Shown in pieces: positions 13,916-64,000 of a stretch of 64,000 bases of DNA. Position 1 is the stretch's first letter; each line of letters starts with the position of its first letter. A program made the translations under genes and the position numbers. A model generated the notes under the pieces. The model saw nothing but the letters and a program-made list of their open reading frames with translations. It had not been told where the DNA came from and made no database searches. This stretch comes from Lophium mytilinum (taxonomy: Eukaryota): assembly GCA_010093605.1 (NCBI GenBank), contig MU004189.1:1495834-1559833 (forward strand), read 5' to 3'.

Positions 13916-15436
13916 TCAGATTGATTGCTCCTTAATACTGTCCTTATTTTCCTTCACGGGATCCCCGGCCCACGGCGGCTCTCCATCGTCATCAAATTCT
14001 GCCCATTGGAAAAAGGAACATCTACCTTTCGTTAAATTCTCGCCCTCTTCAAGAGACTGGAGTTTCACTACTCACCCTTCTTTCCTAGGAGTATAGTTGG
14101 TATGACACATCCACATATATCTACCCCGGTTTTCCGTTCGTTTCTGCACACATCGAAGCACTGTCGGCACCCCGCATTTGCATTTCGGCGTAAATCGTGG
14201 ATGCAGGCTTTCCTTGTAGCATCGATAGGTGATGTTGATTCTTTTGTTCTTGGCAATTGGATGAGGGTCGATAGCCTGAGCCGGCGCAATCGAGTGCTTC
14301 CATTCCTCCTGCATTTCTGCATGCATCACGAGAAGGGAGTTGTGCGGTAGGTGAATTGAAATCTGCCCCTCTTTATCGGCTCGAGAGACATCCACCTTCT
14401 CTCCACCGCTGTCGCGAGGGATGACTTTTCGCACCCGGAACTCTCGTGCTACACCAAGACTGAGGCTCCCGATGACCGCCCGTGGGCCCAGGTACGTCAA
14501 TTGATCCGAGTGGTATCCCACGCTATTGCCGTTGTCAACGTCTATCATAATCCGGAAACGAAGCATGTTCACAAACCTCTGTGCTCCACCGTCATAGCAG
14601 TTCACAAAAGCCGCATTCGGCGCCCATGGATGTGGAGACTGGAACTTAAGCTTTTTAGCCTTGGGATAGAATGTCTTGATCCGTCTCTGTATCTCCTCAT
14701 TGACGGCAGCCTGTACTTTCGAGCCAACTTGTCGCATTTCTGGCAGTGTTTGCCGAATATCCTGACTAACCTCAGCACTTCATCAGCCAGCAACGCTCAG
14801 AAAATGACGCACCTTGATATAACTTCCATTGTAAACATACTCTGTTTTCTGCGCCTCTGCTTCGTCCCATGAGTTCGCATAAAAACACATCGTATGAGGA
14901 CTTTCTACTGTATTGCCAAACAACTGAAACGTCTCCCTTTGAAATGTCGGGGCTTCCTCCAGTAGCTCAAGCAATAGCGCATCGGCTTCATGGGAAGGGA
15001 GGAAATTGTGAATAATCGAGCACGGCGTATGCGTCTCGATATCTTCTGGGGCAAACAGATGCAAGGTTTGGCCCTTCTTGGTCAGAACCTTCTTTGTGCT
15101 TCCTGATAATCCGGATTGGCTTTCCTTGCTTGTGGTAAATGCTGATAACGATGATTGATATCCGATTCCAGTGGCGATTTTCTTCCGTGGAGAAACTGCC
15201 ATATTGCTGTGCTTTAGTGCCTGCGACGCGAGATCGACTGAGCCTTCTGACATTAGCAAGGTCTCCAGGAGTGTCTCTTCGTCACAGTGGGGATGAAGCG
15301 ATGCCAGCAGTGCCAACTTGAAGTCTGTAGACTCATCGTCGGTGGCGGGGTCTATCTGACACCGGGTTGATGCAGTCGATACATACTCCCGATCGTCAGA
15401 TAGTCTCCTCCTCTTTCTGGAAATAAAGGTATCCAT
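13916..15436 (-). CDS. AlkB-family 2OG-Fe(II) dioxygenase with CUE-like N-terminal region and C-terminal GRF zinc finger (4 exons)
   Basis: SVGYHSD (HxD), WKHSI, RINITYR, and CKCG...NRGRYMWMC...CSFFQW. Confidence 0.9.
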
Positions 15437-15704
15437 CGCGGCAGTTGACGTGTTGAAAACGCGTGAAGTTGGAGCCTGCTCTAGGTGCTTTGGGAGACAC
15501 GACAAGGCGTCATCTCGTGATCGGCAAATCTAAGACACCTCGGCTTGCACTTTATCGATAGAGCTACAGCGCTTGAACTCCACCACATGCCATACGCTCG
15601 CTCTTTGCCGTCCAGTCATGATAGAATTCGACTGCGACTATATGCCTTCTCATTACCGGTAGTCCCCAGATATCCCCACGCCGCGTCGGCGTGAATAGCT
15701 CAAT

Positions 15705-16832
15705 ATGCTCGAATTCCGGACTCAAGGGTATAACGGGTACTCGGTCAAGTACTCCCCCTTCTTCGACTCGCGCATCGCAGTCGCGTCTTCCGCAAATTTC
15801 GGACTTGTAGGGAATGGGCGTCTCTATATATTAGGGCTCACAGCGAACGGCATCGTGGCCGAGAAATGGTACCTACAACACACTTACCCACCCCTCCACC
15901 AGTTCGCAGCTAACCTTCTCCTCTACTCCAGGTTCGACACCCAAGACTCCCTCTTCGACACCGCGTGGTCCGAATCCCACGAGAACCAGATTCTCACTGC
16001 CTCCGGCGACGGCAGCATCAAGCTCTTTGACATCTCCTTAAACCAATTCCCCATTCAATCCTGGACCGAACACGCCCGCGAGGTCTTCTCCGTCCACTGG
16101 AACCTCGTAGCTAAAGATACCTTCCTCTCCTCCAGTTGGGACGGCACTATTAAAATCTGGAACCCAACCCGCGCCGAGTCTCTCGTCACGCTCCCCACCC
16201 ACAGCTGCACATACTCCGCCCAATTCTCCCCGCACAACCCCAGCCTCCTCAGCGCCGTGAGCAGCGACTCCCACCTGCGCGTATTCGACCTGCGCACGCC
16301 GGCGAGCGCATCAAACCACCTTACGCTCAGCGTACCGATCCACACACCCCCGAAAGCTCGAATGGGCGTCGCGCCCCCCGTCGGCATACCCCCCAGCGAA
16401 GCGCTCACGCACGACTGGAACAAGTACCGCGACAGCGTCGTCGCGACCGCCGGCGTGGACCGCTGCGTCCGCACTTTCGACATCCGCGCGCCGGGCGCCG
16501 GCCCGGTCGCTGTCCTCCCAGGCCACGAGTATGCGGTGCGCAAGGTGAGCTGGAGCCCGCATCTCAGCGACATCCTGCTCAGCGCGAGTTACGACATGAC
16601 ATGTCGCGTGTGGACGGACGGGAGCGCGATGGGGGTTGGGCAGCAGGGTGCGCAGGGCCAGCAGGACCCGATGGTGTTCGGGAATGGGCGGGAGTTGGGG
16701 AGAATGGGGCGGCATACGGAATTTGCGACGGGGGTGGATTGGTGTTTGTTCGGGGCGGAGGGGTGGTGTGCTAGTGTGGGGTGGGATGAGAGGGTTTTGG
16801 TTTGGGATGTACGGGCGATTATGGGGCCATGA
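15705..16832 (+). CDS. PEX7: Peroxisomal PTS2 receptor Pex7 (WD40; in-frame 63-nt intron 15869-15931)
   Basis: YSPFFDSRIAVASSANFGLVGNGRL N-terminus and WD repeats (SSSWDGTIKIW, SASYDMTCRVW). Confidence 0.96.
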   Translation: MLEFRTQGYNGYSVKYSPFFDSRIAVASSANFGLVGNGRLYILGLTANGIVAEKWYLQHTYPPLHQFAANLLLYSRFDTQDSLFDTAWSESHENQILTASGDGSIKLFDISLNQFPIQSWTEHAREVFSVHWNLVAKDTFLSSSWDGTIKIWNPTRAESLVTLPTHSCTYSAQFSPHNPSLLSAVSSDSHLRVFDLRTPASASNHLTLSVPIHTPPKARMGVAPPVGIPPSEALTHDWNKYRDSVVATAGVDRCVRTFDIRAPGAGPVAVLPGHEYAVRKVSWSPHLSDILLSASYDMTCRVWTDGSAMGVGQQGAQGQQDPMVFGNGRELGRMGRHTEFATGVDWCLFGAEGWCASVGWDERVLVWDVRAIMGP

Positions 16833-17953
16833 AGGGTATGAGATGGACTCTGGCGTTTGGATGGAGATGTTGAATGCTTATGTTGGGTTGCATAGCGCGT
16901 ATTGTGATGGGATTATGGGTTTTGACAGATGCTGTCCAAAATACGACGTTACGTTTGTTGCATCACGTCCGGATTTTCTATGATATGTTGGAGGGCCTCC
17001 AACAGTATCAGACGAGTGCGAAAAGAAAGCTCTGTTAGCAGCCTGATTTACAGCGTAAGATGACTGGAACTAGTCCTATCATTTACAATACACTGTGGTC
17101 ACTTAGAAGGTGCTAAACGGGAGTCGTAAAGTGTTCATATGAAACCTCCATGGCCGGCCTACTATTCATATCCAATGTAATACCAGAACCGTGACAACTC
17201 CTCCTAATCTAAGGAATGAAATAGTATGTCGCACGCGATGAAATGTATTAGACCGCCCCCGTCCTCTACAGTAGACTAGAGCACTGGATCCTGTGCGTAT
17301 ACGGAGAATTATGAATTGCTTCAAGACGTCATATTTGCCATGAAAGGACAAGTTTGTAAAAATATCGAATGGTCTTGAATGTCTCTAGGCTTGGTATGAG
17401 CTGGGTGGTTTTGTGTGAATGTCTTCCCTGGCTAGACAGCCAACAGCATCACTTTTCAAACGTCAGTTGATTCCACGCTGTGGGACTTTTGAATGTCGAT
17501 GGCCTAAGATTTTGAGACAAAGTCAAACTTACGACGGCAAAACATAGACTGCATTAATGTAGAATCGATCTATACTTCACTCAGTGGATACATCCTCTCT
17601 TAGAGATATCAATTTTTTTTCGAGACTATGGCATGCTCACATGCAGAGTTCGGAACATTAACATGGCAGCCAAAATAACGTACCCATACATTAAAGTAAT
17701 CTTTCATAATAGGGCTTGCAATGTATTAATACGTGGCCTCCTGCTCAATTCAGCCTATCATAGCTTAGTAGCACCGTTGAACCACGGAATGAGTGAAGAA
17801 TAAGTGAAACGTAACCATACTGAAATACATTTTCATGACTCAATGCTTGTCAACCATGGTACGGCGAAAATCCCCACACATCGCCTACCTGTATGATATT
17901 CTCCAACCCTCTCTCCTCCTTTTCTCCTTCGTCCCCCGCGGGGGCCACACCAG

Positions 17954-18003
17954 GTACGTAGCCTTCCCCCAATATCCTAATTCAACAGCTGACTACACTC
18001 CAG
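17954..18003 (+). other. Predicted 50-nt intron in the 5' UTR of the capping-enzyme gene
   Basis: CAG|GTACGT donor, GCTGAC branch site and CTCCAG acceptor, just downstream of a CT-rich tract (17900-17930) typical of fungal transcription starts. Confidence 0.7.
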
Positions 18004-18496
18004 GTTCATAATCCGTACCCCAGGCGAAAGGGTGACCATGCCAGCCCCAAGGCGAAAGGGTAATCATGCCATACTAACCACCTCTCCTGCCGGCAGAGAA
18101 ACCGCCGGCACCCAGCTGCTCAACGGAGGGAACCGGTACGCAAAAGCAGTCACGAACGCGCCATGCAGTCCGCCACATGGAACTTCGCGACTGTCTGGAG
18201 GGGAGCCGGGCTCGCCGCGGTTCAGAGTGTCCATCGTGGCATAAGGGGTGTACCTAGTTGGGTGGACTGTGATGAGAGGGACCACCCAAAAGGGGCGAAT
18301 CGCCGTCCGGGATATCAACGTGCCCGGCGTCAAGGTCTCTCTCGGTAGGTCGTTCCTGAGGTGATAAGCCGCTAGGTACAGATGTTGTATTCCCCTGGTA
18401 GGATGCGTGTATGCCATTAGACGCCTGGTAACCAGCCCGGGCGCTCGACGCGGGATGTCTGCCTTCACGGATCCCGCTCAGTAGCACATAACAGGC

Positions 18497-19978
18497 ATGA
18501 CGACTTTACAGGCCCCGTTTTCGTTGGCCTTTGCGAGCCAGGATTGTCAAGGTCAAGGTGAGTACTGCCCTCCCCCTCGTTTACAGCCAGACAGTGTCGC
18601 GCGGCATCTACGTAAGGGCCTGGAGGCCCTTCTCGGGCACGAGCCGAGGAGGAAGTTCCCTGGGGCGCAGCCGGTGTCTCTCACTCGAAAGCACTTGCAT
18701 AGCGACCTCTCGGGGTATATGGTGTGCGAGAAAACAGATGGAATCCGAGCATTCTTATGGTACACCAAGGATTACCGGACGGGGGAGCAAGCCATATTCT
18801 TGGTTGATCGCAAGTACTGCTTCTACCGTATTGATACTCGTACTACCCACGCACAGGCCTGCGACGACGTCCTTCTTGACACAGAGGTAATTCTTCACAA
18901 GGATGACACGTGGTCCGGCGTTGTTTTCCTCGTTTTCGACTGTCTCGCGTATGGTGGCGCAAGCATCGTCCAGAAGAAGTTGAAGTCGAGGCTGGGTTTT
19001 GCATCAGCATTTGAGGGGGAACTTCGAAGAAGAGCTGCTCCGATGCCAGTAGTGGTGACGGTAAAGAAGTTCCTGCCATTTAGTGGCGTGGAGAAGTGCC
19101 TGAAAGAGATGGAGACCGCCCCCCACGGGACTGACGGTCTTATACTAACCCCTCCGCGTGAGTACCGGTTCCATACGGATGGCGATCTGTTCAAGTGGAA
19201 GCCGGCACGGGAGAATACGGTGGATTTTCAGGTATGTATGGCCCCCTCCCCACCTACTAATTATAAGATGTGGCAGCTCGGTCTGTCTTTGTTCTATGGC
19301 AAGGGAGGACACGAGCTGTTCACTAGCCTCTTCTGGAATGAAGAGGAGTTCACGGCCATGGTCGCTGCGTGGAGGCCAGGTAAGGAGGCTGTACTGGAGT
19401 GTTGGAGAGATGAGAGAGGCCGCTGGCGGCCGAAGCTCGACAAGATCAACCAAAACGACGTCCCTCGGTTCCGCGACGACAAGGAAACTGCCAACTTCTT
19501 CAAGGTAGCCGAGAACGTGATCGCCTCTCTCGAGGATAACGTCACCGAGCGCCAGTTGAAGCTAGCAGCCAAGCGGTCCCACGTCAAGCCGGGTAGCTAC
19601 TTCGAACTCATGGGTGGTCGTGAGCGTGAGGCACAACAAGCTAAGTATGATCACAACGCCCGCTTTTTCGCTGATCGTCGATCTATGAGCCCGGGCAAAT
19701 ACCGACCAGTGTCTCCGCCTCCATACAGGAAATATGGCACTCAGTGTGACATACAACCCTCGTGGAGAGGCCCAAAAACGACAACATCCAGCTCCTCAGC
19801 GTCCGGATTGTGCCCGTCAAGCTCTGTCGTCCCGAGAGCGAAGCGTGAGCGGTCAGCCTCTACTTGTTCATCGCTTCAATCCCACCCTTCGAGCCCGGTT
19901 GGCCACGACTCGAAGCGGAAACGGTCGGATTCGGGCGTTTCTACGAGCTTCGCCGCCGCCTGCGAGGCGCCCATCTAG
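18497..19978 (+). CDS. mRNA guanylyltransferase (capping enzyme alpha subunit, Ceg1-like), divergent, no coding introns, Ser/Arg-rich C-terminal extension
   Basis: FPGAQPVSL; motif I VCEKTDGIR (Lys codon 18731); III LLDTEV; IIIa FLVFDCL; IV DGLILTP; V LFKWKPARENTVDF; VI RFRDDKETAN. Confidence 0.9.
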   Translation: MTTLQAPFSLAFASQDCQGQGEYCPPPRLQPDSVARHLRKGLEALLGHEPRRKFPGAQPVSLTRKHLHSDLSGYMVCEKTDGIRAFLWYTKDYRTGEQAIFLVDRKYCFYRIDTRTTHAQACDDVLLDTEVILHKDDTWSGVVFLVFDCLAYGGASIVQKKLKSRLGFASAFEGELRRRAAPMPVVVTVKKFLPFSGVEKCLKEMETAPHGTDGLILTPPREYRFHTDGDLFKWKPARENTVDFQVCMAPSPPTNYKMWQLGLSLFYGKGGHELFTSLFWNEEEFTAMVAAWRPGKEAVLECWRDERGRWRPKLDKINQNDVPRFRDDKETANFFKVAENVIASLEDNVTERQLKLAAKRSHVKPGSYFELMGGREREAQQAKYDHNARFFADRRSMSPGKYRPVSPPPYRKYGTQCDIQPSWRGPKTTTSSSSASGLCPSSSVVPRAKRERSASTCSSLQSHPSSPVGHDSKRKRSDSGVSTSFAAACEAPI

Positions 19979-20055
19979 GCCGTCGATTCCGGGAGGAGGT
20001 TGACAGTCCCCTACCGTGAGCGGAGGATGGTGGTGAGATGAGCGTAGTTCCATTC

Positions 20056-20105
20056 GTAAGTACTACTGCTGTTTCTCACCATAGCCTTGTCACTAAATCC
20101 AATAG
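20056..20105 (+). other. Predicted 50-nt intron in the 3' UTR of the capping-enzyme gene
   Basis: GTAAGT donor, CACTAA branch-like site and AATAG acceptor, starting 77 nt after the stop codon. Confidence 0.6.
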
Positions 20106-20135
20106 AATGCCTTCTTACGAACCTTAGTTGGCCTT

Positions 20136-20364
20136 GTCGGGAGGCGGTCTAAGGCCCCTGCTGCGATAGTGCAGGTTGGGTGGCTACTGGCTCTCGATCC
20201 TTTTTTAAGTCTTACCACCACCTCTCGCACTTTGAATGGTGCTAGGTCTTCCTTTACTACCGTTCTTGGAGCTCGTCGGGAGGTGGTATTAGGCCCCTAC
20301 TGCGACACGTCAGGTGGATGGTGGCTATCACATCTCGCTGTCTTTTGTAAGACTTACTGCTACC
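20136..20364 (+). repeat. Diverged direct repeat (two ~90-nt copies, 139-nt period)
   Basis: GTCGGGAGGCGGTCTAAGGCCCCTGCTGCGA...TAAGTCTTAC at 20136 versus GTCGGGAGGTGGTATTAGGCCCCTACTGCGA...TAAGACTTAC at 20275. Confidence 0.85.
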
Positions 20365-20663
20365 CTTATTAGCCACGTCACTAATTCTCTCAGAAAGTAA
20401 CCGAAGGATACCAGATGTGGGCGACGATGAACGGGTACTAGGTAGTGTAGCTCTTTTTGGCAATTTGAACTACTCCCCCGCCCCCGAAAACACTCTTGAT
20501 CAATGTCCTCAACCTGTTGTCTAATGCTGTATTGCTGTGATGTTGTGATATTGTGAATTTATTGAACTAAATGTGTGGCTGTTCTGCGCAGTGCCGTAAC
20601 AGTTTGGAGGTACCCTGGGAGGTCGACCATTTACGGCGTGTGAAGTGGATTATTGGTAGCTGT

Positions 20664-20777
20664 GTAATGGGAGTAATGGGAGCAATGGGAGTAATGGGAG
20701 TAATAGGAGTAATGGGAGTAATGGGAGTAATAGGAGTAATAGGAGTTATAGGAGTAATGGGAGTAATGGGAGTAATA
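20664..20777. repeat. 9-bp minisatellite (GTAATRGGA) x ~12.5
   Basis: Read directly from the sequence. Confidence 0.95.
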
Positions 20778-21257
20778 TAAGAAATTCGTTAAAAATGTTG
20801 GATATCTTTTTAGTCGTTGTTGTCGGAAGTCCTGTATATAGCGTTCGAAAATATTAGTTCAACGTTAAAACTCTAGACTGGCAACTGGAGTATTGCCTAC
20901 GTTGATATTCTGTATGGCCACAACATTGCGTGGTGCCCTGGCGTGCTTCTCGAAATATGGGAAGCTGTACCGATCCAGGCACTGTATGTCAGACCGCCGG
21001 ATCTTGCACTGAATTGCTACCAATTGCAAGCGTCGGGGGAGCTTCACAGGGTTAAGTTTTGCGACGTGCAATGTCAAATCAAGAGACTGTAAATTGGAAG
21101 ACTACTTTACGAATAGATTTTCCAGCGGTATGAAATTGCTAGGAGTGCCCCAACGCCATATAAGTACCCGCACTCTGACCCAAGTATCGTACCAAATCTC
21201 TATTCTTCCCTATAGCCATAGTCACAAATTCCGAAACGTCAACTCAGCCCGATTCGT

Positions 21258-22090
21258 TCAAACTTTTATCTCGGGCAAGTGCCCACTGAACTTGTCTCCG
21301 GCCTTGCTCGGTGGCGCATAGGACGATGACATTGGCTTAGGTTTTCCCGCCTTTACTGCCGTCTTTTTTCCCGACCCTGGGGTTGTACTCGTTCCCGGGT
21401 ATGGCTTGTCTGCCCCCTTCGATACGGACGCTCCACCAATTGGCTTTTTCGATGGATAGGTAGTCGTGCCCGGGTACGGCTTCGGCTTTGAGGCATCGGG
21501 CTTCGAGCTCGAGCTTGGGTAAGGCTTAGGCGCACTAGCCAACGCTGGCTTCTTCGTCGCAGCTGGCTTAGCTGTGGGTAAAGACTTGTTCGTTCCGCCA
21601 GGGTACTTGTTTGCGCCGATAGGAGTCGCAGAAGTCTTCCCGCCGATGGACTTGTTTGCGCCGATGGGAGTTCCCCCGGTCTTGCCGCCAGGGTATTTGT
21701 TTGCTCCGATAGGGGTCGAGGTCTTCTTCGTAGATGTAGATGCAGGACTCGAGTATGATCGCTGCACACTGGCGGGCTTTCCAGCGGTTATCGACTTCTT
21801 AGGTACGCTGCCCTTGATAGTATTGGCAGCGGCCTGGCCTCCGATCTTGGTAGCGTAGCTTGCTGCAGCGCCTTCTACGCCTATAATACAACGCGTTAGC
21901 TTTCGATATATGGACTAGGAAGAGCGCAAAGCTTGCTGTTGGCCGTACTCGTTCCGACGCCGCGTCCAGTATTCTCAATCAAGTCTCCTGCTTTGATCAA
22001 TGCATCACCCGCGAATCCACCTGCTGCTCGAGTCCCCGCGTCGACGAAGCCAGCGACGCTGTTGGATATGATGTTGGAAATGAAGTTCAT
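21258..22090 (-). CDS. Uncharacterised Lys/Pro/Gly-rich protein (2 exons) with 15-aa TPIGANK repeats
   Basis: ATG at 22090. A GTACGG...GCTAAC...ATAG intron (~21882-21948) joins MNFISNIIS... in frame to the 21258-21767 ORF. Confidence 0.75.
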
Positions 22091-22691
22091 GATGGTGAGA
22101 TATTTGGAAAGGAAGAGTGTGGAAGAGAGAACGACGGTTTTGGTGGAATGGAAAGAGACGCCACAGATCGATGGAGCTGTGGTTGGCCTTGTGGCATCCT
22201 GGGGATTCTTGTTCTGGAGTGATGCATCTTGCCTCAAAATGACGTCGAGCGGCTGGGATGCAAGGGTTGAGTGCGGAGGATTGGCCCAACGCAGATCATG
22301 GTCACGTGCTGTACGAGGTGTTACATTTACTACTCGAATGCAATATACGAGAAGAGCGTTGGAACGATTAGCTATCAAAACTGTAGTGCAGATGTTGTAG
22401 TGTAGAGAAGGACGATTCGAAGGCAGAGAAAGGGGTATAGCTTCATGTGGCACGTGCATTTTGATAAGCTATTCTTGTTCCTCGTGACATTGGTATACAA
22501 ATTTTGATCTCCGTACTTCGATCCTTTCATGTACCCTACAGAATAGCAGCATAGCCCGGCAAAAACATGATTGCTGCGTATATCAACCATGTTAATCGAC
22601 AATCCCATCAGCCCAATGCCCCAAAACGCCGTGCTAGACACATTATCATACAAAAATCATCAACTGTTTGATAGTACATTTACAAACAACG

Positions 22692-25071
22692 TCAAGTCGT
22701 TAGCTTTTTAGGTGCAGATTTAGGAGCTTGGATCTTTGGCGGGCCGCTTGAGGCTGGCTGCTTCGTCGTCGTTGGGGCCTTCTTTGGAGTGGCACCATTC
22801 AGCTGAGAGCCAGCTGCTTTCGCTGCAGGCTTAGGTGCAGTGGCTGGCTTCTTGATGGGAGGCTTTTGAACAGCTAAACCTTGGTTAGCCTTTGGCTTCT
22901 GCTGAGTCGGCTTCAGTGCTGTTGGCTTCGTCGTCGGTCTGACTGCCGGCTTCTGAGGTGTTTGGGGACCAGCTTTTGCTAAAGGCTTTTGCCCATTACC
23001 TGAGACTACCGGGTTGGACTGCTTTTTCACTGGGTTACCAGTATTTGAAGATACTTGGATAGTAACGCCAGATGCCGTGGTGAAGGTTCTGCCGCTTTGC
23101 GCTTTCTCCACTTCGCTTTTGGAGATGTGAATTGGAATGCCTGACTTCGTCATAACCACGCCGCCGCCTTTCACTTTTTCAACCTCACTCTTAGCCACTT
23201 GGATTGGAACTCCTGACTTTGTCATGACAGTCTGCATTGGGCCTGACGGTGCTGGCTTTGCCTTTAAGGGAGGTGCTGGTTGTTTCATAGCAGTGGTTGG
23301 ACCTTTCGTACTTCGAAGATTTGCCACGCTTTGCGCTTTAGGAGGATACTTCTGAGTACCAATTGGGGTTCGTCTTGGGGGCCCTACGGTAGATACGGCC
23401 TTGCGCTTTTGGCCTACTGTCGGGAGACCATTCGGCAAAACCATGCCATTCTTGATGGCACTCTCTTTCACCAGCTGAGCTAGATGCTCTTGTGTCAGTC
23501 TTTGCACCTTGTCCTGATTCTTAGGTTCGACGGTCTGCGCAGCTGACATCTTAGCCGCTCCTTCAATGAGCTTCTCCATTTGTTCCGGATTGGGCGGTCC
23601 TTTCATTGCTGCGTCTCCCGCTCCTAAAAGAGCTCCCATTTGCTGCGTGAGGAACTCCGTCCCACCCGGGATAGGTAGATCAGCGGGAGAAGCTCCATAT
23701 GCGAGAGTAAGTGCCATCATGACACTCGTTATCGGAGCAAATATCTTGACAAATTCGTTCCAGCTGCCAGACTTGACCTCGGTCTCAATCATGCGAGCTG
23801 CTGGAGCCACGTTCCTGATGCTATGACTACCCGAGCTCGTATCGCTGACGTCGAGCTGATCCTTCCAGTAGTCGTCAGCTGGGAACTTGCTGTGGCGTGT
23901 GAAGTATTCAAGAAGGTAATCCTTTTCTCTCCATCGATTCCTGAGCCAGACGTCGAATGCCTTGGGGTTGTCTATTGGGATGGAGTCGACGTGGAATCTT
24001 CGCCATTGCATATTGACTGACTTTGGAGGACGACCTTCGAAGAAAGAGGATCGAAGGGTGAAGATGTCTTGGCCGAACTGACCGGGACTTAATCGCAGAT
24101 TAGTATACCGGTGCGATCAAAGATTGGGTTTGTAGCTTACGGGACACCTTCGTAAGCAATGGTGCAATCATAGAGCCAATGACTGGTTTCCCGCAATTCC
24201 TGCAAGCAAAAGCGCAACCCAGTGCTCCGCGGGAGGAGCTGATGTTTCATGTCCTGCAATCCGTTCTTGTCTGCCCATCTTTTGCTGGCCTCTCTCGTAG
24301 ATTGAGAAAGATTAGTTCCTTCGGGGAATATGAGTAACCACATCGGGTCCTTTGGTTTGTTCAAAGTTGCCAGATGCTTCTTGAATTGGTTCTTGTCGTC
24401 TTCCCACTTCCGGGATAAGAAGATGAAATTGTAGAATTGAGCACCCCAGCCAAGGATTGGAATGTTCTTCAAAGACTCCTTCAGGATGATGTAGATATAG
24501 CCATGCATGCCGTTCGTGTAGGCGATCCACCAAAGATATAGCCAATCAGTATAGAGCTGGTGCCGTTAGTCTGGCTACTTCAACGCTAGGAAAGTGTCTT
24601 CGTCGTGTCACTTGCCTGGTGGTTTGCCATCATAACCATCCGATCGGAGAAGTTGCATTTCAGACTCCCATCCTTCATCTGTGAGAGCTGGCCGGTCATG
24701 CTTTCGTCTCCACTGACGCGCACCACAGTTGGGGCCCACCATTGTGTCAGACAGGTAATCAGGATCGCGAACGACTCTTTCGTGTATGCCATGTAACCAT
24801 CGTAGAAGGTGGGATCGATGAGCTTCAGGGGCGCACCGAGGAATTGGGATGCGCTTATACTGGTCCCGAATGTTACTTCTTGTGCTTCTATTCACGGAAG
24901 CGAGGAGTCTTACGCCAAAACCCCCGACATAAACGTTGACGCCAATGTAAAGGCTCGTTCAGCCTGCGACAGCTCTCCATGCTTCGGCGGACCTGCTGGG
25001 TGATTCTCGACCGTCTTCTTCGCAACGTTCAGGCCTGCCCCGAGGTCGGTCTTTTTTGGTTTCGGGGCCAT
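22692..25071 (-). CDS. Lysophospholipid acyltransferase (LCLAT/Cst26-like PlsC family) with long low-complexity C-terminal extension (4 exons)
   Basis: NHQ|LYTDW, ILKESLK, FIFLSRKW, LLIFPEGT, LLPRSTGL and YDCTIAY motifs. Confidence 0.92.
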
Positions 25072-56736: not shown

Positions 56737-59700
56737 ATGTCTTCATCTAGTCCCGACGCCGCAAAGCGGGCCGCACGCTTCTCCCAAATCCTCTCGCGGC
56801 TGGTTGAGGTCCCGGGATACACTTGGGATGTGGACAGAGAACCGTTCCATTCAGTGGGCTCTACCTGATTCCAGCATTCGTACTCGTACTGACAGAAATT
56901 CTGGTAGTCCTACGACAACTGGCACTTTTTTGGCTTCCAAAACACCAACTCCGACAGTCCCCAGTCGCGAGGCCGTTCCGCTCCTCCCAAGTCCTTGAAT
57001 TCCCAGTCCCACTCGAGCTCACATTCGCCGGACAGCAGTGATGCCACCGTCACGCCCACAATACCCCAAGTGCCGCACCAACGGCAGGTCATCGCGCGCG
57101 TCTCAAGACATCTGCTCCGTCTGGAAAGGGAATACCAGCTCTGCAAACTCGTAGTTGAGAAATCAGATCCCGAATGCAAACACTTTGTCCGGCCCTTGGA
57201 AATCGTCCGCCTCCCACCAAAGTCTGGAAACTCCGAGAGTCTGGTTTGCTCAATATTCGAGGCCCCAGGCGTCAATTACCTCCGCGAATTAATAGAACTA
57301 GGACCAAATTCTTTCCAGCTTGCATCCCAAACCAGTTGGGAGCTCAAAGCATTGGGCAAGAGCACCGAGCGGGTTCCTCTGCTCACGTTCCTGGACTTTG
57401 CCGTTGGTGCTACCCAGTGTTGCGAAATACTCCACCATGGAAATCGCATAGTACATGGCGAGCTGCGGGGAGATGCGTTTCACTTCAATATGGAAACACG
57501 CGTTGTGAAGATGATAAATTTTGGGTCTGGGGCGCGGTCCTTCGAGAATGGTTTGACCAGCGCAGGATGGTCCTCCTTAAGCCGCGAAGTAGGCGTTGAG
57601 CATAAGCTGCAGTTCATCGCCCCGGAGCAGACGGGACGTTTACCTGCTGAGCCAGATAGTCGCACCGACATCTACAGCCTTGGAATAGTGTTCTGGACGA
57701 TGCTAACAGGAGAGACTGCGTTTGACGGCAACAACCCTCTTGATATAATGCAAAACGTCCTCTCAAAAAGAATACCCCCGGTCTCCATAAAACGAACAGA
57801 CGTACCAGACGCGTTGTGTGCTGTAATCACGAAGATGACGCAGAAGAACATCGGCGAACGCTATAATTCTACCTCAGGCCTGAAGTACGACCTCGTACAT
57901 ATCCAAAAACTTCTCTACGAAGGTGACGGAGAAGGCCTTCAAGCATTCAAAATTGGCACCAAGGATATCTCCTGTTTCTTTAATTTACCTTCGAGACAAA
58001 TTGGACGCGAAAAAGAGCGGGCACAGGTTGTGGCAATAGTGGAAGGCGTTTCGAAACGGCAACGGCAGCCCCACCTCTCTACCAAGGGACTTAGTAGTCT
58101 TAGCTCGAACTCCTCATACTCCAACTCTCACCTTGAATCTGCAGTCCAAATCGACGATATGATGTCGGATAGCACCAGCTCCAGGGGATCCGAAAGCCGG
58201 ACGGGGAGTGGCAATGGTACCATACATATGGAGGCTACGAGATCAGTGCATCAAAAATCACAGGATAGCACCAGGAAATCTGAGCAATCTACTCCTGATG
58301 GCGTTTCAGAATTACCGGATTCGAGGCCATTGTTTATGGGAACCAGGTTTGAGAGCAGGCCCGGGCTCTCTGTCAGCAGCACAGACGGTTCATTGTCCAA
58401 CGCATCCATTCAGCGGTCAAGCGGTACTGGGACCGATGGATCGACGTCTCTTTTACGCAACGCCCAGAACATGAAAAGGAAAAGCCGCTGTGAAGTCATT
58501 ACAATCTCAGGAGCAGCTGGCCTTGGGAAGTCCTCTCTCGTGCAAAGCATCCAGATCGCAGCCAGGAGCCATGGCTACTTTGCATCAGCCAGATTTGACC
58601 AAGCAAAACGGGCACCCTTTGAACCTATCCTGAAGTTGATGTCTTCCCTCTTTCGGCAGATTTTCTCAGAGAGCGACGTGTCAACCGAGTTCCATAACAA
58701 CATACGCGCCTACGTTAGACCCGTTTGGCATCTCCTCCACAGCTACTTAGATTTACCAGAATGGTTGCTTAATTCTGGTAGTGTACCGAGGCCACAGCAG
58801 CGAGATTTGCAAGCTATCAAAAGCCCACGTCGAGCATCATCTCCGGCTATGCATTGCGGAAGTGCAGGAAATACTGCCGCAGATTGGTTGCGTTCCGGCG
58901 GCTCAACCAAATCTTCCAGGTTCATGAACACTTTCATTGAAGTCCTCCGCCTCTTTGCGGTTTGTAAATTTATTTGCTTCTGCGTTGACGATCTTCAATA
59001 TGCCGATCCGGAAAGCCTAGAGCTCATCTCAAATATTGTCTCCGGACGTATTCCGATAGTGTTCATCTTAACGTACCGAGAGGAGGATGGCTTACCGAAA
59101 GAAACTCGTTCTATGTTGCGTTCCGCAACTAGGATACAGTTGCGACCATTTGACGAGGATCACACAGCGGAGTATGTTTCCGAGACATTACATCGAGATC
59201 GCGACTATGTTTTACCGCTTGTCGCCGTAATCCAGGAGAAGACTATGGGCAATCCTTTCTTCATTCGCGAAATGCTGGATACGTGCTACCGCAAGGCCTG
59301 CGTTTATTACTCATGGAAAGATTCTACCTGGGAATATGACCTCGATAAAGTGTTCACCGAGTTCGAGTCTCAAACCTACGGATCGCAGATTAACAATGAC
59401 TTTGTCGCAAAGAGACTACAAGAGCTACCAGTCCCTACGAGATCGCTACTCGCATGGGCCTCGCTGATTGGCAATAGCTTCTCATTTAGCCTTGTCAAAA
59501 CACTGCTGGCTGGAGAAACTGTACCGTCGAACGGCTCTGAAATACCCACCTTGACCGATTCGCAAGACTCGGTTTTTGCATTGCAAGGAGCTCTGTCCTC
59601 CTACATACTGATGACCGGGGAGGACGAAGACAAGTTCAGGTTCTCTCACGATCGATACATGCAAGCCGCAACATCGTTAACAGAGTGCTACAATAAACCG

Positions 59701-62700
59701 GAAATGCACTTTGCGATAGCCAAAACCATGATCGAAAACGACTATCACGATGATTCGGTCGCCAACTCGAAAGGTCTTTATATTCGAAGCCGACACATCT
59801 GCTTAGCAGTGGATCTCATCAAGTCAAGAGTACAAAACCGTGCCCCCTACAGAGACGTGTTATATCAAGCGGCAGAGAATGCTCGAGAGTCGGGAGCACG
59901 CTCGACCGCATTATACTACTATACACATTGTCTTAACTTGCTACAGGACGACCCCTGGAACGAAAATACGCCCGACGTGTCTTACCAAGAAACGTTAACC
60001 TTGTTCACCCGATCGGCAGAGTGCTACTGGTTTCAAAGTATGTTCGAAGAAGCACTGGGCTTACTACAAACCACGTTCAGTAAAGCAAAGGATGCTGTGG
60101 ACAAAGCCCCTTCCTGGATCTTGCGTTCGCGAGTGTTCGCTGTGAAAGGTGACAGTTTCGCTGCGTTCCAAGCGCTAAAGCAATGTTTATCGGACCTTGG
60201 GGTTGAGATCGGGCGAACGACTTGGGAAGAATGTGACTCTGAGTTTCAACGACTATGCGCTGAACTGAAGAACGTTGATGGGGACGAGTTAGTAGCGAGA
60301 GCTCCGACGAACGATCGCAATCTCATGACAATGGGTGCCGTCTTTGTGGAGTTGCTCAGCGCCGCCTTCTGGAGTAATTCGCTCCTCTTCTATCAAATCA
60401 CTCTCAAAATGGTAGACATACATCTGCACAAAGGAACAGTTCCCCAAATCGGCTTGGGCTATGTTCACTTGGCATCAATCTGCGCAGGCCGATTCAATAT
60501 GGTAGAGTACGGCGTTGAAATCGGCGACATGGCTAAACGCCTTCTGGAAGTTTACCGCGAAGAGCCTTACACTGTGGGACGCGGACAAACTTTGCATGCC
60601 CTATTTATGGGTCACCTTCAAACCCATGTCCGCGATCAGGTTAGCAACATTTCTAGCTGGCGTACCCATCTTCAGAGCTCGCTAACATCTAATAGATCCC
60701 TATTCTGAATCGTGCAATGGAGGCAAGCCTTGTGGCCGGCGACCGTATCCTTTCATTGCTAAACCTAGGGGTTGTTGCCGCCTTCAGACTGTGGTCTTCC
60801 TACGATCTCGCCGAACTAGAAGCTTGGATAGACGAAGCCCCTATGGAGTTCAAGAATTGGCAAGAGGATTTGCGTGGAGGCGTCTTCCTTATCAGCGTCA
60901 AACAATATGCTCGCGCAATGCAAGGCAAGACGCACTCCCATTCCGCAGAGCTCGTAATGTCAGACGATGAACACCAGACAACAAAATACCTCGAGCATCT
61001 CGATTCAAGGGCTTCCAATTCGAAACGTCCCAGAACTATATACTTGAGCTACAAGCTCATAATACTATATAGGTTTGGATTCATTGCCGAGGCGATCGTG
61101 CTTGGAGAACTGCTTCTGCCCATGATGGAAAGTGTATGGTGTATGCGCCTTCAATATTCCAACCTTTTCTATCTCTCGTTGGCCTATCTAACTACCATCC
61201 GCGAACAATTCTCTACCATCAGCGCGTTCAAGAAAGGCAAATTACTGGATTTTGTAAGGTCTTCAATCAGCAAAATACGATCCTGCTGCGCCGTCACCGA
61301 CATCAACTACAGCATATGGCTATCTCTCCTCAGCGCTGAGCTACACGACCTTGATGGAGATCGAGTAACGGCTTTGGTGCATTACGAAGCTGCCATCGAC
61401 CACGCTGAACTTCATGGCTTTCTTCTCGACGAAGCTCTTTCGTACGAGCTTTACGCCGAATTCCTCCAGCGCGCGGGATCTACTAGGCCGGCTCGCCGTA
61501 TGCTGAAGGATTGTGTGTCGACCTACCGGCGTCTCAGCGCGTTTGGAAAATCCGATCAATTGGCTGCCAAATACGAGTGGCTCATCCAAGGGACTTCCAG
61601 CCTATCCACCATGGATGTCGCCTGTCAGACAACTATCATTGATACTGGGAATACCTCGTTCAAATTAGAGCAAAATGAAGATCAAGAGGCACGAATGCTC
61701 GGTGCAGAAACCTCGGTTGATCGGACACACGCTTGGCTTGGCCCAAGCAATTCCTCCGGCGCAGGAAAGCAATCGGCAACTCATAACGACCTTGAAGGTG
61801 GATTTTCGGCTGTCGGACTTGATATGATTGACCTCACTAGTATTCTGGAGTCGTCGCAGGTTCTATCTTCGGAGCTTCAAGTTGATCGATTGTTAGCGAA
61901 GATGACGGAGATTATTCTGGAAGCTACAGGAGCAGATCTAGGTGCCATTATTGTTGAGGATGATCAAATTCAATGGAGCGTCGCAGCTGTTGCAAGTCCT
62001 GATGGAGTCCAATCATACCCTGGTGGCCAGTCTTTGGAGACCGTCGAAGATCATGTGGCTCGTCAAGTAACGCTTTACGTTCTAAGATTCAAGGAGGTCG
62101 TGTTCGTCCAGAATTTGCTTGAAGATGACCGGTTTTCCAACGTATCAGAGTCCTACCTGAAGCGAAACCCTGTAGGCAAAGCAGTCATAGCAATCCCTAT
62201 ATTGCACGGAAACGACGACATTCTACTCGGCTCGATATACGTCGAAGGACCCCCAAATAGCTTCACTGAAAGGAACACAAACGTCCTCCGACTCCTTGTC
62301 AACCAAATTGCCATATCGCTTGCCAATGCTCTACTTTTCAAGCGGGTCGAAAAAGTGCGCGCGAGCAATGCAGCTATGTTGGAAATGCAAAAGAACTCTC
62401 TAGTCCAAGCACGGGAAGCTGAAAACAAAGCAAAGGAAGCAGAAGCCGTCGCTATTCGCACGATGAAGTTGAAAGAGGAGGCAGCCAAGGCGAAGTCCCT
62501 TTTCCTTGCGAACGTGTCGCACGAGCTACGCACGCCTCTCAACGGTGTTATTGGCATGAGTGAGCTTCTCAAAGCTAGTCCACTCAACGCTGAGCAAGCG
62601 GGATATGCAGATAGCATCCGCGTTTGTGCAGATACCCTTCTTTCGATCATCAACGACTTGCTAGACTACAGCAAACTGGAGGCTGGCAAGATGAGTATGA

Positions 62701-64000
62701 TATCGATGCCACTGAGCTTGACAGAAACAATTACCGAAGTCGTTCGTGCGTTGTCGTACACGAATGCCGAACGAGGGCTAAAAACCATAGAGCAGCTAGA
62801 ACTAGATCCCGATCTATTCGTCATGGGAGATCCTGTCCGTCTCCATCAGATTTTGATGAATTTACTCTCGAACAGCTACAAGTTCACGCCCAATGGCTCG
62901 GTTACAGTCAAAGCTACTGTGCAGCGAGAAGACGCAGACACAATTGACATCACTTGCAGCGTCATAGACACTGGAATTGGTATACCGGACGAGCAAAAGA
63001 AGAAGCTCTTCCTTCCATTCAGCCAAATCGAAAGCTCCAGCTCACGGAGCTATGGTGGTACCGGCCTAGGGCTGAGTATCTGCAAAGCAATCATCGAAAA
63101 CGTAATGATGGGCAAGATCTGGCTCGAGAGCACACCAGGAGTGGGAACTACGGTATCATTCTCGCTTAAGTTCAAAAAGATTCCTAAATCGGAGGCTATG
63201 CGAATGGAATGGGATTCGCGCGATCCCGATCCCATGGCGAAGTTTTCTGCTCAGGAGAACAATGGCCACGAGCAGCTACCAAACGGTTGTATTGATCTCT
63301 CTAAGGTTCCAAGGAAAGAGCTTCGTATTTGCATAGCCGAAGACAATCTCATCAACCAGCGGATAGCGATTTCGTTTGTGCAGAGGCTTGGGTTCATGTG
63401 CGAAGCTTGCGCAGATGGCCGGAAGACAATAGATGCGCTCGAGAAGGCAAGCGAAGAGGGTTTCCCGTTCCATCTTGTAAGCATAATTCCTGAAAGTATC
63501 CTTTGGGGGCAAAGCTGACATCCGATTTAGGTCTTGATGGACGTGCAGATGCCCGTCCTAGACGGCTACGACGCCACCAGAGAAATCCGACAGCACAAAG
63601 ATCCCGTAATCCGCAACGTCCTCATCATCGCCATGACCGCATCTGCTATTCAGGGGGACCGTGAAAAGTGCTTAGAGGCGGGCATGAACAATTACCTGGC
63701 AAAGCCAGTCCGGTACGCACCACGTCCCCTTTCTATCTCCCAGGTTACAGAAGTACATAAGCTAACGGTCGCATAGCGCCCAAACACTAAAAGCACTCCT
63801 CGAGTCCTATCTCTCCCAGCCTGAAAAGGACATGCCGGACCTCCAGCAACAGGCCAACACGCTCGCTAGACGGGTCATGATAGATGCTGAAAATGACGCC
63901 TCGGAAGTGAAAGAAAACCAGCGGCCCAAAAGCTCGAGGGAGAACACGGCGCTCCGGACGGGTGCGGTGCAGCAAGGGGCTCTCAAAGATTCGTCCACCA
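56737..64000 (+). CDS. Group X (Chk1/Mak2-3-like) hybrid histidine kinase: kinase-like, AAA, GAF, HisKA, HATPase and receiver domains; runs off the window end
   Basis: First exon from ATG 56737 (VPGYTWD...PFHS|SYDNWH). P-loop GAAGLGKS, H-box [37 protein letters not shown], and receiver AEDN / LMDVQMP / KP. Confidence 0.95.

Follow-up and report, generated by a model that had tools for sequence, protein, structure and literature searches.

Is the capping-type guanylyltransferase (GTase) encoded in a 64-kb stretch of the Lophium mytilinum genome (contig MU004189.1; hereafter the window, meaning the whole stretch that was analysed) the ordinary messenger RNA (mRNA) capping enzyme of this fungus, or is it an enzyme of another kind? 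The fungal capping GTase is regarded as essential, single-copy and slowly evolving. The protein encoded in the window is recognizable as a member of this class, and its identity to canonical fungal Ceg1 is no more than 33-36%. The comparisons described here support the interpretation of this divergent GTase as a second, lineage-restricted form, other than the ordinary CEG1 orthologue. We consider that it is probably a functional paralogue of the Ceg1/Pce1 type, which stands beside canonical CEG1 rather than replacing it.

The GTase open reading frame (ORF), defined from the ORF list and its translation, occupies 18497..19978 of the plus strand and encodes 493 amino acids; an in-frame TAG at 18482-18484 lies five codons before its ATG. 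It is a real gene, with the following parts:

18497..19978, plus strand: intronless coding sequence for the divergent GTase, 493 amino acids plus stop (ORF list, translation, collinear X3 and X4 contigs, described below)
18668..19201, plus strand: nucleotidyltransferase (NTase) domain, residues 58-235, carrying motifs I, III, IIIa, IV and V (Pfam PF01331)
18731..18733, plus strand: codon of Lys79, the predicted GMP-accepting lysine, in motif I C-E-K-T-D-G-I-R (GTase alignment)
18878..18886, plus strand: motif III core D128-T129-E130, with a rare Gly-to-Thr change (GTase alignment)
19211..19558, plus strand: OB-fold domain, with motif VI R-F-R-D-D-K-E-T-A-N-F-F at residues 324-335 (Pfam PF03919)
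19577..19975, plus strand: C-terminal tail, residues 361-493 (AlphaFold2 confidence, composition and motif positions)

The catalytic profile PF01331 was matched at residues 58-235 over its entire length (profile positions 1-194 of 194; 97.1 bits, E 1.6e-27), and PF03919 was matched at residues 239-354 with 61.8 bits, the curated Pfam cut-offs being 29.6 and 26.5 bits, respectively. No family besides these two was found in the Pfam scan of the protein, the tail being without any match. The window GTase has a match to the catalytic profile, an OB domain with motif VI, and the K-x-D-G signature together with the conserved acidic and basic residues of the other motifs.

A word-indexed protein search with the window GTase, for which the best 120 of 240 matches were listed, returned two close sequences, namely a partial model of the window protein itself (P0003, identity 100%) and a Mytilinidion resinicola entry named 'uncharacterized protein BDZ99DRAFT_500283' (P0002), 74% identical over 98% of the query. 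Beyond these two, all the matches listed were fungal capping enzymes with identities of 36% or less. The same gap was apparent when 1.84 billion cluster representatives were searched exhaustively with phmmer: the protein's own cluster scored 763 bits and the next match 149.8 bits at 36% identity; 1590 matches had an E value of 0.001 or less, and 16 of them reached 1e-30 or less. A scan of metagenomes yielded 61 loci, all at most 50% identical over short segments only, and none in the divergent clade. So far, the divergent GTase has not been encountered outside a single small group of fungi that live in wood and resin.

Canonical capping enzymes were recovered in a separate search. With the canonical enzyme of Bimuria (P0045) as a query, sequences named 'mRNA capping enzyme, alpha subunit' were identified in M. 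resinicola (P0199, 418 amino acids, 59% identical to the Bimuria enzyme) and in Lophium mytilinum (P0206, 434 amino acids). P0199 and P0206 share 83% identity, whereas the window GTase (P0001) is only 33% identical to P0206, and the Pfam scores of the two canonical enzymes, 162-167 and 112-114 bits, contrast with 97 and 62 bits in the window GTase. M. resinicola carries both forms, P0002 and P0199, on separate contigs, and therefore two GTase forms coexist in at least that genome.

Motif columns were read in a 358-row alignment of GTases, which comprised 356 other sequences, the window protein and P0002. The initial annotation of the locus had reported six GTase motifs, and all six were found in the window protein with their invariant residues kept. 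Every one of the 19 invariant or near-invariant residues checked is retained, 15 of them being K79, D81, G82, R84, D128, E130, F147, D148, D213, G214, K233, W234, K235, N240 and D243, and the other four, R326, D328, K329 and N333, belonging to the OB domain and motif VI. The Lys79 column holds lysine in 351 of the 356 aligned GTases, and in our alignment it corresponds to the Lys67 motif of Schizosaccharomyces pombe Pce1, as described in PMC4066402.

Two oddities noted at the outset, D-T-E in motif III and A-N-F-F in motif VI, proved to be both real and rare. Column 129 of motif III is glycine in 341/356 sequences and threonine in only 2/356, the window protein having threonine and P0002 isoleucine; column 334 of motif VI is histidine in 271/356 and phenylalanine, the residue of the window protein, in 12/356. 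A third rare residue was found in motif IV, in which column 217 is phenylalanine in 345/356 and leucine in 2/356, and the window protein has leucine (F217L). Over the family columns conserved at 90% or more, the window protein keeps 42 of 51, the 17th lowest retention among the 358 rows, whereas canonical P0199 and P0206 keep 53 of 53.

The predicted structure agrees with this assignment. An AlphaFold2 model, computed from an alignment of 60 rows, had a mean predicted local distance difference test (pLDDT) score of 77, with values mostly above 90 over residues 28-360, strands at 242-323 in the OB domain, a helix at 374-395, and values below 50 for residues 397-493. Foldseek placed first the S. 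pombe Pce1 structure (4pz6_A; E 2.6e-31, TM 0.78 normalised to the target), then 1p16, 4pz8, 3kyh and 1ckm (E no higher than 5.6e-22 for each), the human enzyme, and, far behind, DNA ligases. A sequence search of solved structures gave a similar picture, with S. pombe Pce1 (4pz6, E 2.1e-39), Candida albicans Cgt1 (1p16, 1.3e-30) and Saccharomyces cerevisiae Ceg1 (3kyh, 1.9e-28) ahead of the weaker 1ckm ('MRNA capping enzyme', two conformations with GTP, 1.5e-13), which we take to be the Chlorella virus capping enzyme, and human 3s24 (1.4e-9). The window protein thus has the capping-enzyme fold, on a predicted rather than a solved structure, and according to the structure search, phmmer and the tree its closest relatives lie among the Ceg1 proteins of fungi and not among viral enzymes.

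The basic Ser/Arg/Pro tail of about 130 residues that had been remarked on at first inspection corresponds to residues 361-493 (133 amino acids), which include 26 Ser, 13 Pro and 13 Arg and have a net charge of +11. Its last 100 or so residues are predicted to be disordered. It contains the basic clusters K-R-E-R (at 449) and K-R-K-R (at 473), together with S-P sites at 398, 406 and 466. The two clusters suggest nuclear import, and we infer from them a nuclear location of the enzyme.

Contigs of four sequencing runs were aligned to 15000-24500 of the window. Run X1, which may be the source of the assembly, was excluded as support; the other runs, X3, X4 and X5, come from two studies. None of the listed sources is recorded as RNA, and the RNA nature of X3-X5 was judged solely from spliced contigs. 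Intron-like joints were present in X3-X5 contigs at the neighbouring genes (15868-15930, GT..AG, in PEX7; 21880-21947 and 24088-24140 on the minus strand), and the runs are therefore read as RNA-derived. In the GTase region, X3 covers 18238-18840 and 19024-19688 with 0 differences. A 2499-nt X4 contig, about 96.6% identical, is collinear with 17939-20036 and continues to 20345, with a sole indel in the collinear part at 18278, upstream of the ORF, and X5 contributes three shorter contigs within the ORF. From these collinear contigs it follows that the GTase ORF is unspliced and that the gene is very probably transcribed in two related organisms. Contig cover in the flanks extends over 16808-17204, 17939-18496 and 19979-20345; the lack of X3 cover at 17219-17852 and 20072-20388 carries no evidential weight. 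Two further features were delimited on this basis:

17939..18496, plus strand: upstream leader of the GTase, with nine upstream ATGs (X4 contig of a related organism)
19979..20345, plus strand: probable 3' untranslated region (X4 contig, which continues over 20106-20345)

The upstream ORFs of this leader range from 3 to 68 codons, and translation of the GTase would be regulated or weak if they lie on the mRNA. Two joints of the X4 contig, 20036/20106 and 20345/20397, were considered as introns and rejected, given that their ends are GA..AG and TG..AA; they are interpreted as replaced segments.

Comparison of the two divergent copies indicates how the gene has fared since they separated. The window GTase and P0002 are identical at 356 of 446 aligned residues (80%), leader and tail included. 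By region, identity amounts to 28/30 in the N-terminal leader, 164/200 in the NTase domain, 80/89 in the OB domain and 84/127 in the tail; a folded core better conserved than the disordered tail is what would be expected under selection. Six of the nine departures of the window GTase from conserved columns have the same residue in P0002, and these are therefore old, maintained changes. No indel interrupts the GTase reading frame in the X4 contig, which derives from a third organism of about 96.6% identity. The tree path between the divergent copies is 0.20 and that between the canonical P0199 and P0206 is 0.14, bearing in mind that the species pairs may differ. We propose, from these sequence comparisons, that the divergent GTase has been under constraint since its burst of change.

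The origin of the gene was addressed with a tree of 40 rows and 424 columns, inferred under LG+C20 after 18 unnamed long or unplaced rows were dropped from an initial 58. The window GTase and P0002 formed a pair (100/100) within a Dothideomycete clade (98/98) without resolution at its base, and the stem of the pair measured 3.4 changes per site, compared with a median end branch of 0.38. A quick tree of all 58 rows, which placed the pair with other long unnamed branches, was discounted as possible long-branch attraction. In approximately unbiased (AU) tests, a clade in which the pair joins canonical Mytilinidiaceae CEG1 was rejected (p 0.0033), while a position of the pair outside all 32 named Pezizomycotina enzymes was not (p 0.23). 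On so long a branch, the AU test shares the weakness of the substitution model. These results favour, short of proof, an ancestry in a Dothideomycete CEG1. The narrow distribution and the tree are in some tension, the former suggesting that the duplication was recent and that a burst of change came after it, the latter preferring an older split.

These results also qualify the first description of the gene as a second, fast-evolving paralog. A second divergent lineage is indeed indicated by P0002 beside P0199 and by the stem of 3.4; the speed, by contrast, belongs to that stem and not to the present, as the paths of 0.20 and 0.14 indicate. The initial annotation had also named a case that would speak against a paralog, in which the protein is the only capping GTase and groups with its orthologues at normal branch length. 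The tree gave a different outcome, with the long stem and the rejected clade with the CEG1 of Mytilinidiaceae, and M. resinicola has a separate CEG1.

The proposed functional paralogue can be outlined as follows. The gene would most likely derive from a Dothideomycete CEG1, and a phase of very rapid change would have remodelled the surroundings of the nucleotide pocket (T125V, G129T, L131V, F185V, F217L and H334F). A conserved N-terminal leader of 20-30 amino acids and a basic, largely disordered tail of about 130 amino acids would have been gained, and constraint would have followed. In the encoded enzyme, Lys79 is expected to attack the alpha-phosphate of GTP, forming a covalent enzyme-GMP adduct, while the OB domain with motif VI would close over the nucleotide, and GMP would then be passed to a 5'-diphosphate RNA end. 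Enzymatic activity itself we regard as reasonably likely.

Several observations weigh against the interpretation of a functional paralogue beside CEG1. Nine of the 51 highly conserved columns are altered in the window GTase, while the canonical enzymes of the same fungal family keep 53/53, and G129T and F217L, which lie inside catalytic motifs, could mean impaired or altered activity. The P0002 model lacks 35 amino acids that correspond to the first three OB strands, PF03919 being matched at 56-114 only; this skip may be an annotation artefact (a false intron) or a real lesion, and a lesion would weaken the case for conserved function. At the RNA level, the contigs tell neither strand, ends nor level of the RNA, their depths giving no ranking of expression, and the nine upstream ATGs would hinder translation if the mRNA starts that far up. 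The presence of canonical CEG1 in the window's own genome is inferred, and a placement outside the named Pezizomycotina enzymes survived the AU test, as stated above. As a separate observation, the P0002 model bears a 60-amino-acid N-terminal extension without a counterpart in the window; most likely this model should be re-annotated, the alternative being a damaged gene in M. resinicola.

Part of these objections would be accounted for if the duplicate no longer capped RNA, having become a pseudoenzyme or a regulator whose role is limited to binding GTP, RNA or the polymerase, having changed its nucleotide or acceptor, or being in slow decay. The rare G129T, F217L and H334F in or near catalytic motifs, the nine changed columns, the incomplete OB fold of the P0002 model and the upstream ATGs of the leader could all be read in this way. 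Yet the family-invariant residues are all retained in both species, which would be unexpected after the loss of catalysis, the folded core is better kept than the tail, and confidence in the predicted fold is high. Threonine in motif III occurs in eukaryotic ATP-dependent DNA ligases, members of the same superfamily, and is thus compatible with nucleotidyl transfer. We therefore judge a non-capping duplicate unlikely, and retain the functional paralogue as the better explanation.

A bolder extension of the functional paralogue would be a second system devoted to capping or recapping, in which the remodelled pocket (T129, L217, F334) serves a particular RNA class or a nucleotide other than GTP, the disordered, basic and phosphorylatable tail replaces the ordinary means of recruitment, and the leader rich in upstream ORFs exerts control. 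Examples of such a class might be stress-regulated RNAs, non-polymerase-II RNAs or decapped RNAs of the cytoplasm. We hold such a specialized system to be a speculative and rather unlikely elaboration.

Acquisition of a foreign GTase, from a virus, a plasmid, a mobile element or a distant eukaryote, followed by domestication, would explain the very long stem of 3.4 changes per site, the very narrow distribution and the position outside the named Pezizomycotina enzymes that the AU test did not reject. Against this, the best matches in sequence and structure are of the fungal Ceg1 type, far above 1ckm and the metazoan enzymes, the best tree nests the pair in Dothideomycetes (98/98), and none of the 61 metagenome loci falls in this clade. 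The surroundings of the gene point the same way. A repeat search around the GTase ORF found no long terminal repeats or terminal inverted repeats, but only four weak inverted pairs of 20-21 nt; no element-type domain was found among the neighbours scanned with Pfam, no Rfam match over 16800-22700, and no tRNA gene in the whole 64-kb window. Codon use is in the range of the window, the GTase ORF having a third-position GC content (GC3) of 0.64 and a codon fit of 0.024, compared with 0.51-0.80 and -0.001 to 0.12 for 11 other long ORFs, and the window genes are of housekeeping type (MutS domain, PEX7, acyltransferase, KAR9, Kelch, WD40 and DIL domains, kinases). The early suggestion of a retrocopy or an element-borne gene loses its footing on the same observations, together with the fungal relatives of the protein, bearing in mind that an old insertion event would have lost its marks. 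A foreign origin thus appears improbable, and descent from a fungal CEG1 preferable.

That the window GTase is the sole capping enzyme, a true CEG1 orthologue evolving unusually fast, would fit the kept catalytic residues and the fact that a second gene was not directly seen in the window's genome, but it is highly improbable given that M. resinicola has both the 74%-identical P0002 and canonical P0199 on different contigs, and that canonical P0199 and P0206, 83% identical and with 53/53 columns kept, exclude an acceleration of the lineage at large.

Compared with known systems, the divergent GTase has in common with the fungal capping alpha subunit (Ceg1, Pce1, Cgt1) the NTase plus OB architecture, the six motifs, the lysine nucleophile and the fold. 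It differs from these canonical enzymes of its own class in its low identity and in Pfam scores that are about 55-60% of theirs, in T129, L217 and F334, and in its conserved N-terminal leader and basic tail. Unlike a single CEG1, it coexists with the canonical form in M. resinicola. The M. resinicola protein P0002 is its orthologue, with most of the unusual residues in common, and differs in the N-terminus, the 35-amino-acid skip and the isoleucine of motif III.

Trypanosomes possess extra GTases, which include a spliced-leader-specific capping enzyme and cytosolic candidates for cap repair or recapping. A report on these organisms provides the nearest precedent for more than one capping-type GTase per eukaryote, divided by RNA pool or compartment (PMC6597758). 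The trypanosome GTases belong to another lineage and have fused kinase or methyltransferase domains, whereas the window GTase is without any added enzymatic domain, and nothing ties it to them by descent. One distant phmmer match, P0353, is a protein of 631 amino acids in which an adenylate-kinase domain (PF00406) is joined to a capping GTase, an arrangement that recalls kinase-GTase recapping enzymes.

How the divergent enzyme might meet the polymerase can be considered from the contacts of Pce1 with the C-terminal domain (CTD) of the polymerase. It is reported that each capping enzyme reads the CTD in its own way and the contact residues differ among the solved fungal enzymes (PMC4066402). 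In our own reading of the alignment, the Pce1 contact residues in the aligned part, R157, G164 and H201, correspond to Lys, Gly and Ser in the window GTase, a comparison limited by the different contacts of the solved fungal enzymes.

The genes on either side of the GTase are:

15705..16832, plus strand: PEX7 (WD40), the upstream neighbour, with its stop at 16832 (Pfam WD40 families; peroxin-7 names among the homologues listed, the best 120 of 1101)
21088..22391, minus strand: downstream neighbour, a spliced gene with an intron at 21880-21947 (X3 contig, CT..AC joint, also in X4 and X5)

The GTase is the only long ORF within the 4.26-kb interval from the PEX7 stop to the next gene. It had been described as alone in a gap of about 4.4 kb and in a gene-poor island; the isolation of the ORF is accurate, while the island was overstated, the flanks being largely covered by contigs. 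The PEX7 intron (15868-15930, 63 nt) is in frame and stop-free, with its GT..AG joint seen in X3 and X4 contigs, and the uninterrupted ORF of 375 amino acids therefore overstates the protein by 21 residues. The downstream gene encodes, as translated from contig coordinates, a low-complexity protein of 254 amino acids rich in Ser, Pro, Lys and Gly, and contains three 45-nt (15-amino-acid) repeats at 21590-21729.

Two kinds of repeats were noted downstream of the GTase ORF. An imperfect 62-nt direct repeat (20115-20176 and 20254-20315; 73% identity, 139 nt apart) lies within the X4-covered part and is without an Rfam or tRNA match, and the segments adjoining it are replaced or shortened in the related organism of X4. 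A minisatellite at 20637-20803 has a 9-nt unit in about 13 registers, with a consensus close to G-G-G-A-G-T-A-A-T; short X1 contigs end or pile up on it to a summed depth above 12,000, and its unit therefore seems to be present at many sites of the genome. Farther along the window, two adjacent long ORFs at 57490-63518 (plus strand) apparently belong to a single large gene for a hybrid sensor kinase, interrupted by an intron or by a change of frame; a kinase-like domain and AAA_16 are found in the first ORF, and GAF, HisKA and HATPase domains in the second.

A full-text literature search, limited in coverage, returned nothing on a second fungal CEG1 or on the window protein. The general importance of the gene is limited by its narrow distribution. 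Within that distribution, a capping enzyme with its catalytic residues kept, about one sixth of the most conserved positions changed and a new tail has been held in at least two species, and it constitutes a natural experiment that may separate the parts required for the chemistry of capping from those required for recruitment. Should the divergent GTase act on an RNA pool of its own, this would be the earliest indication that fungi have specialised capping.

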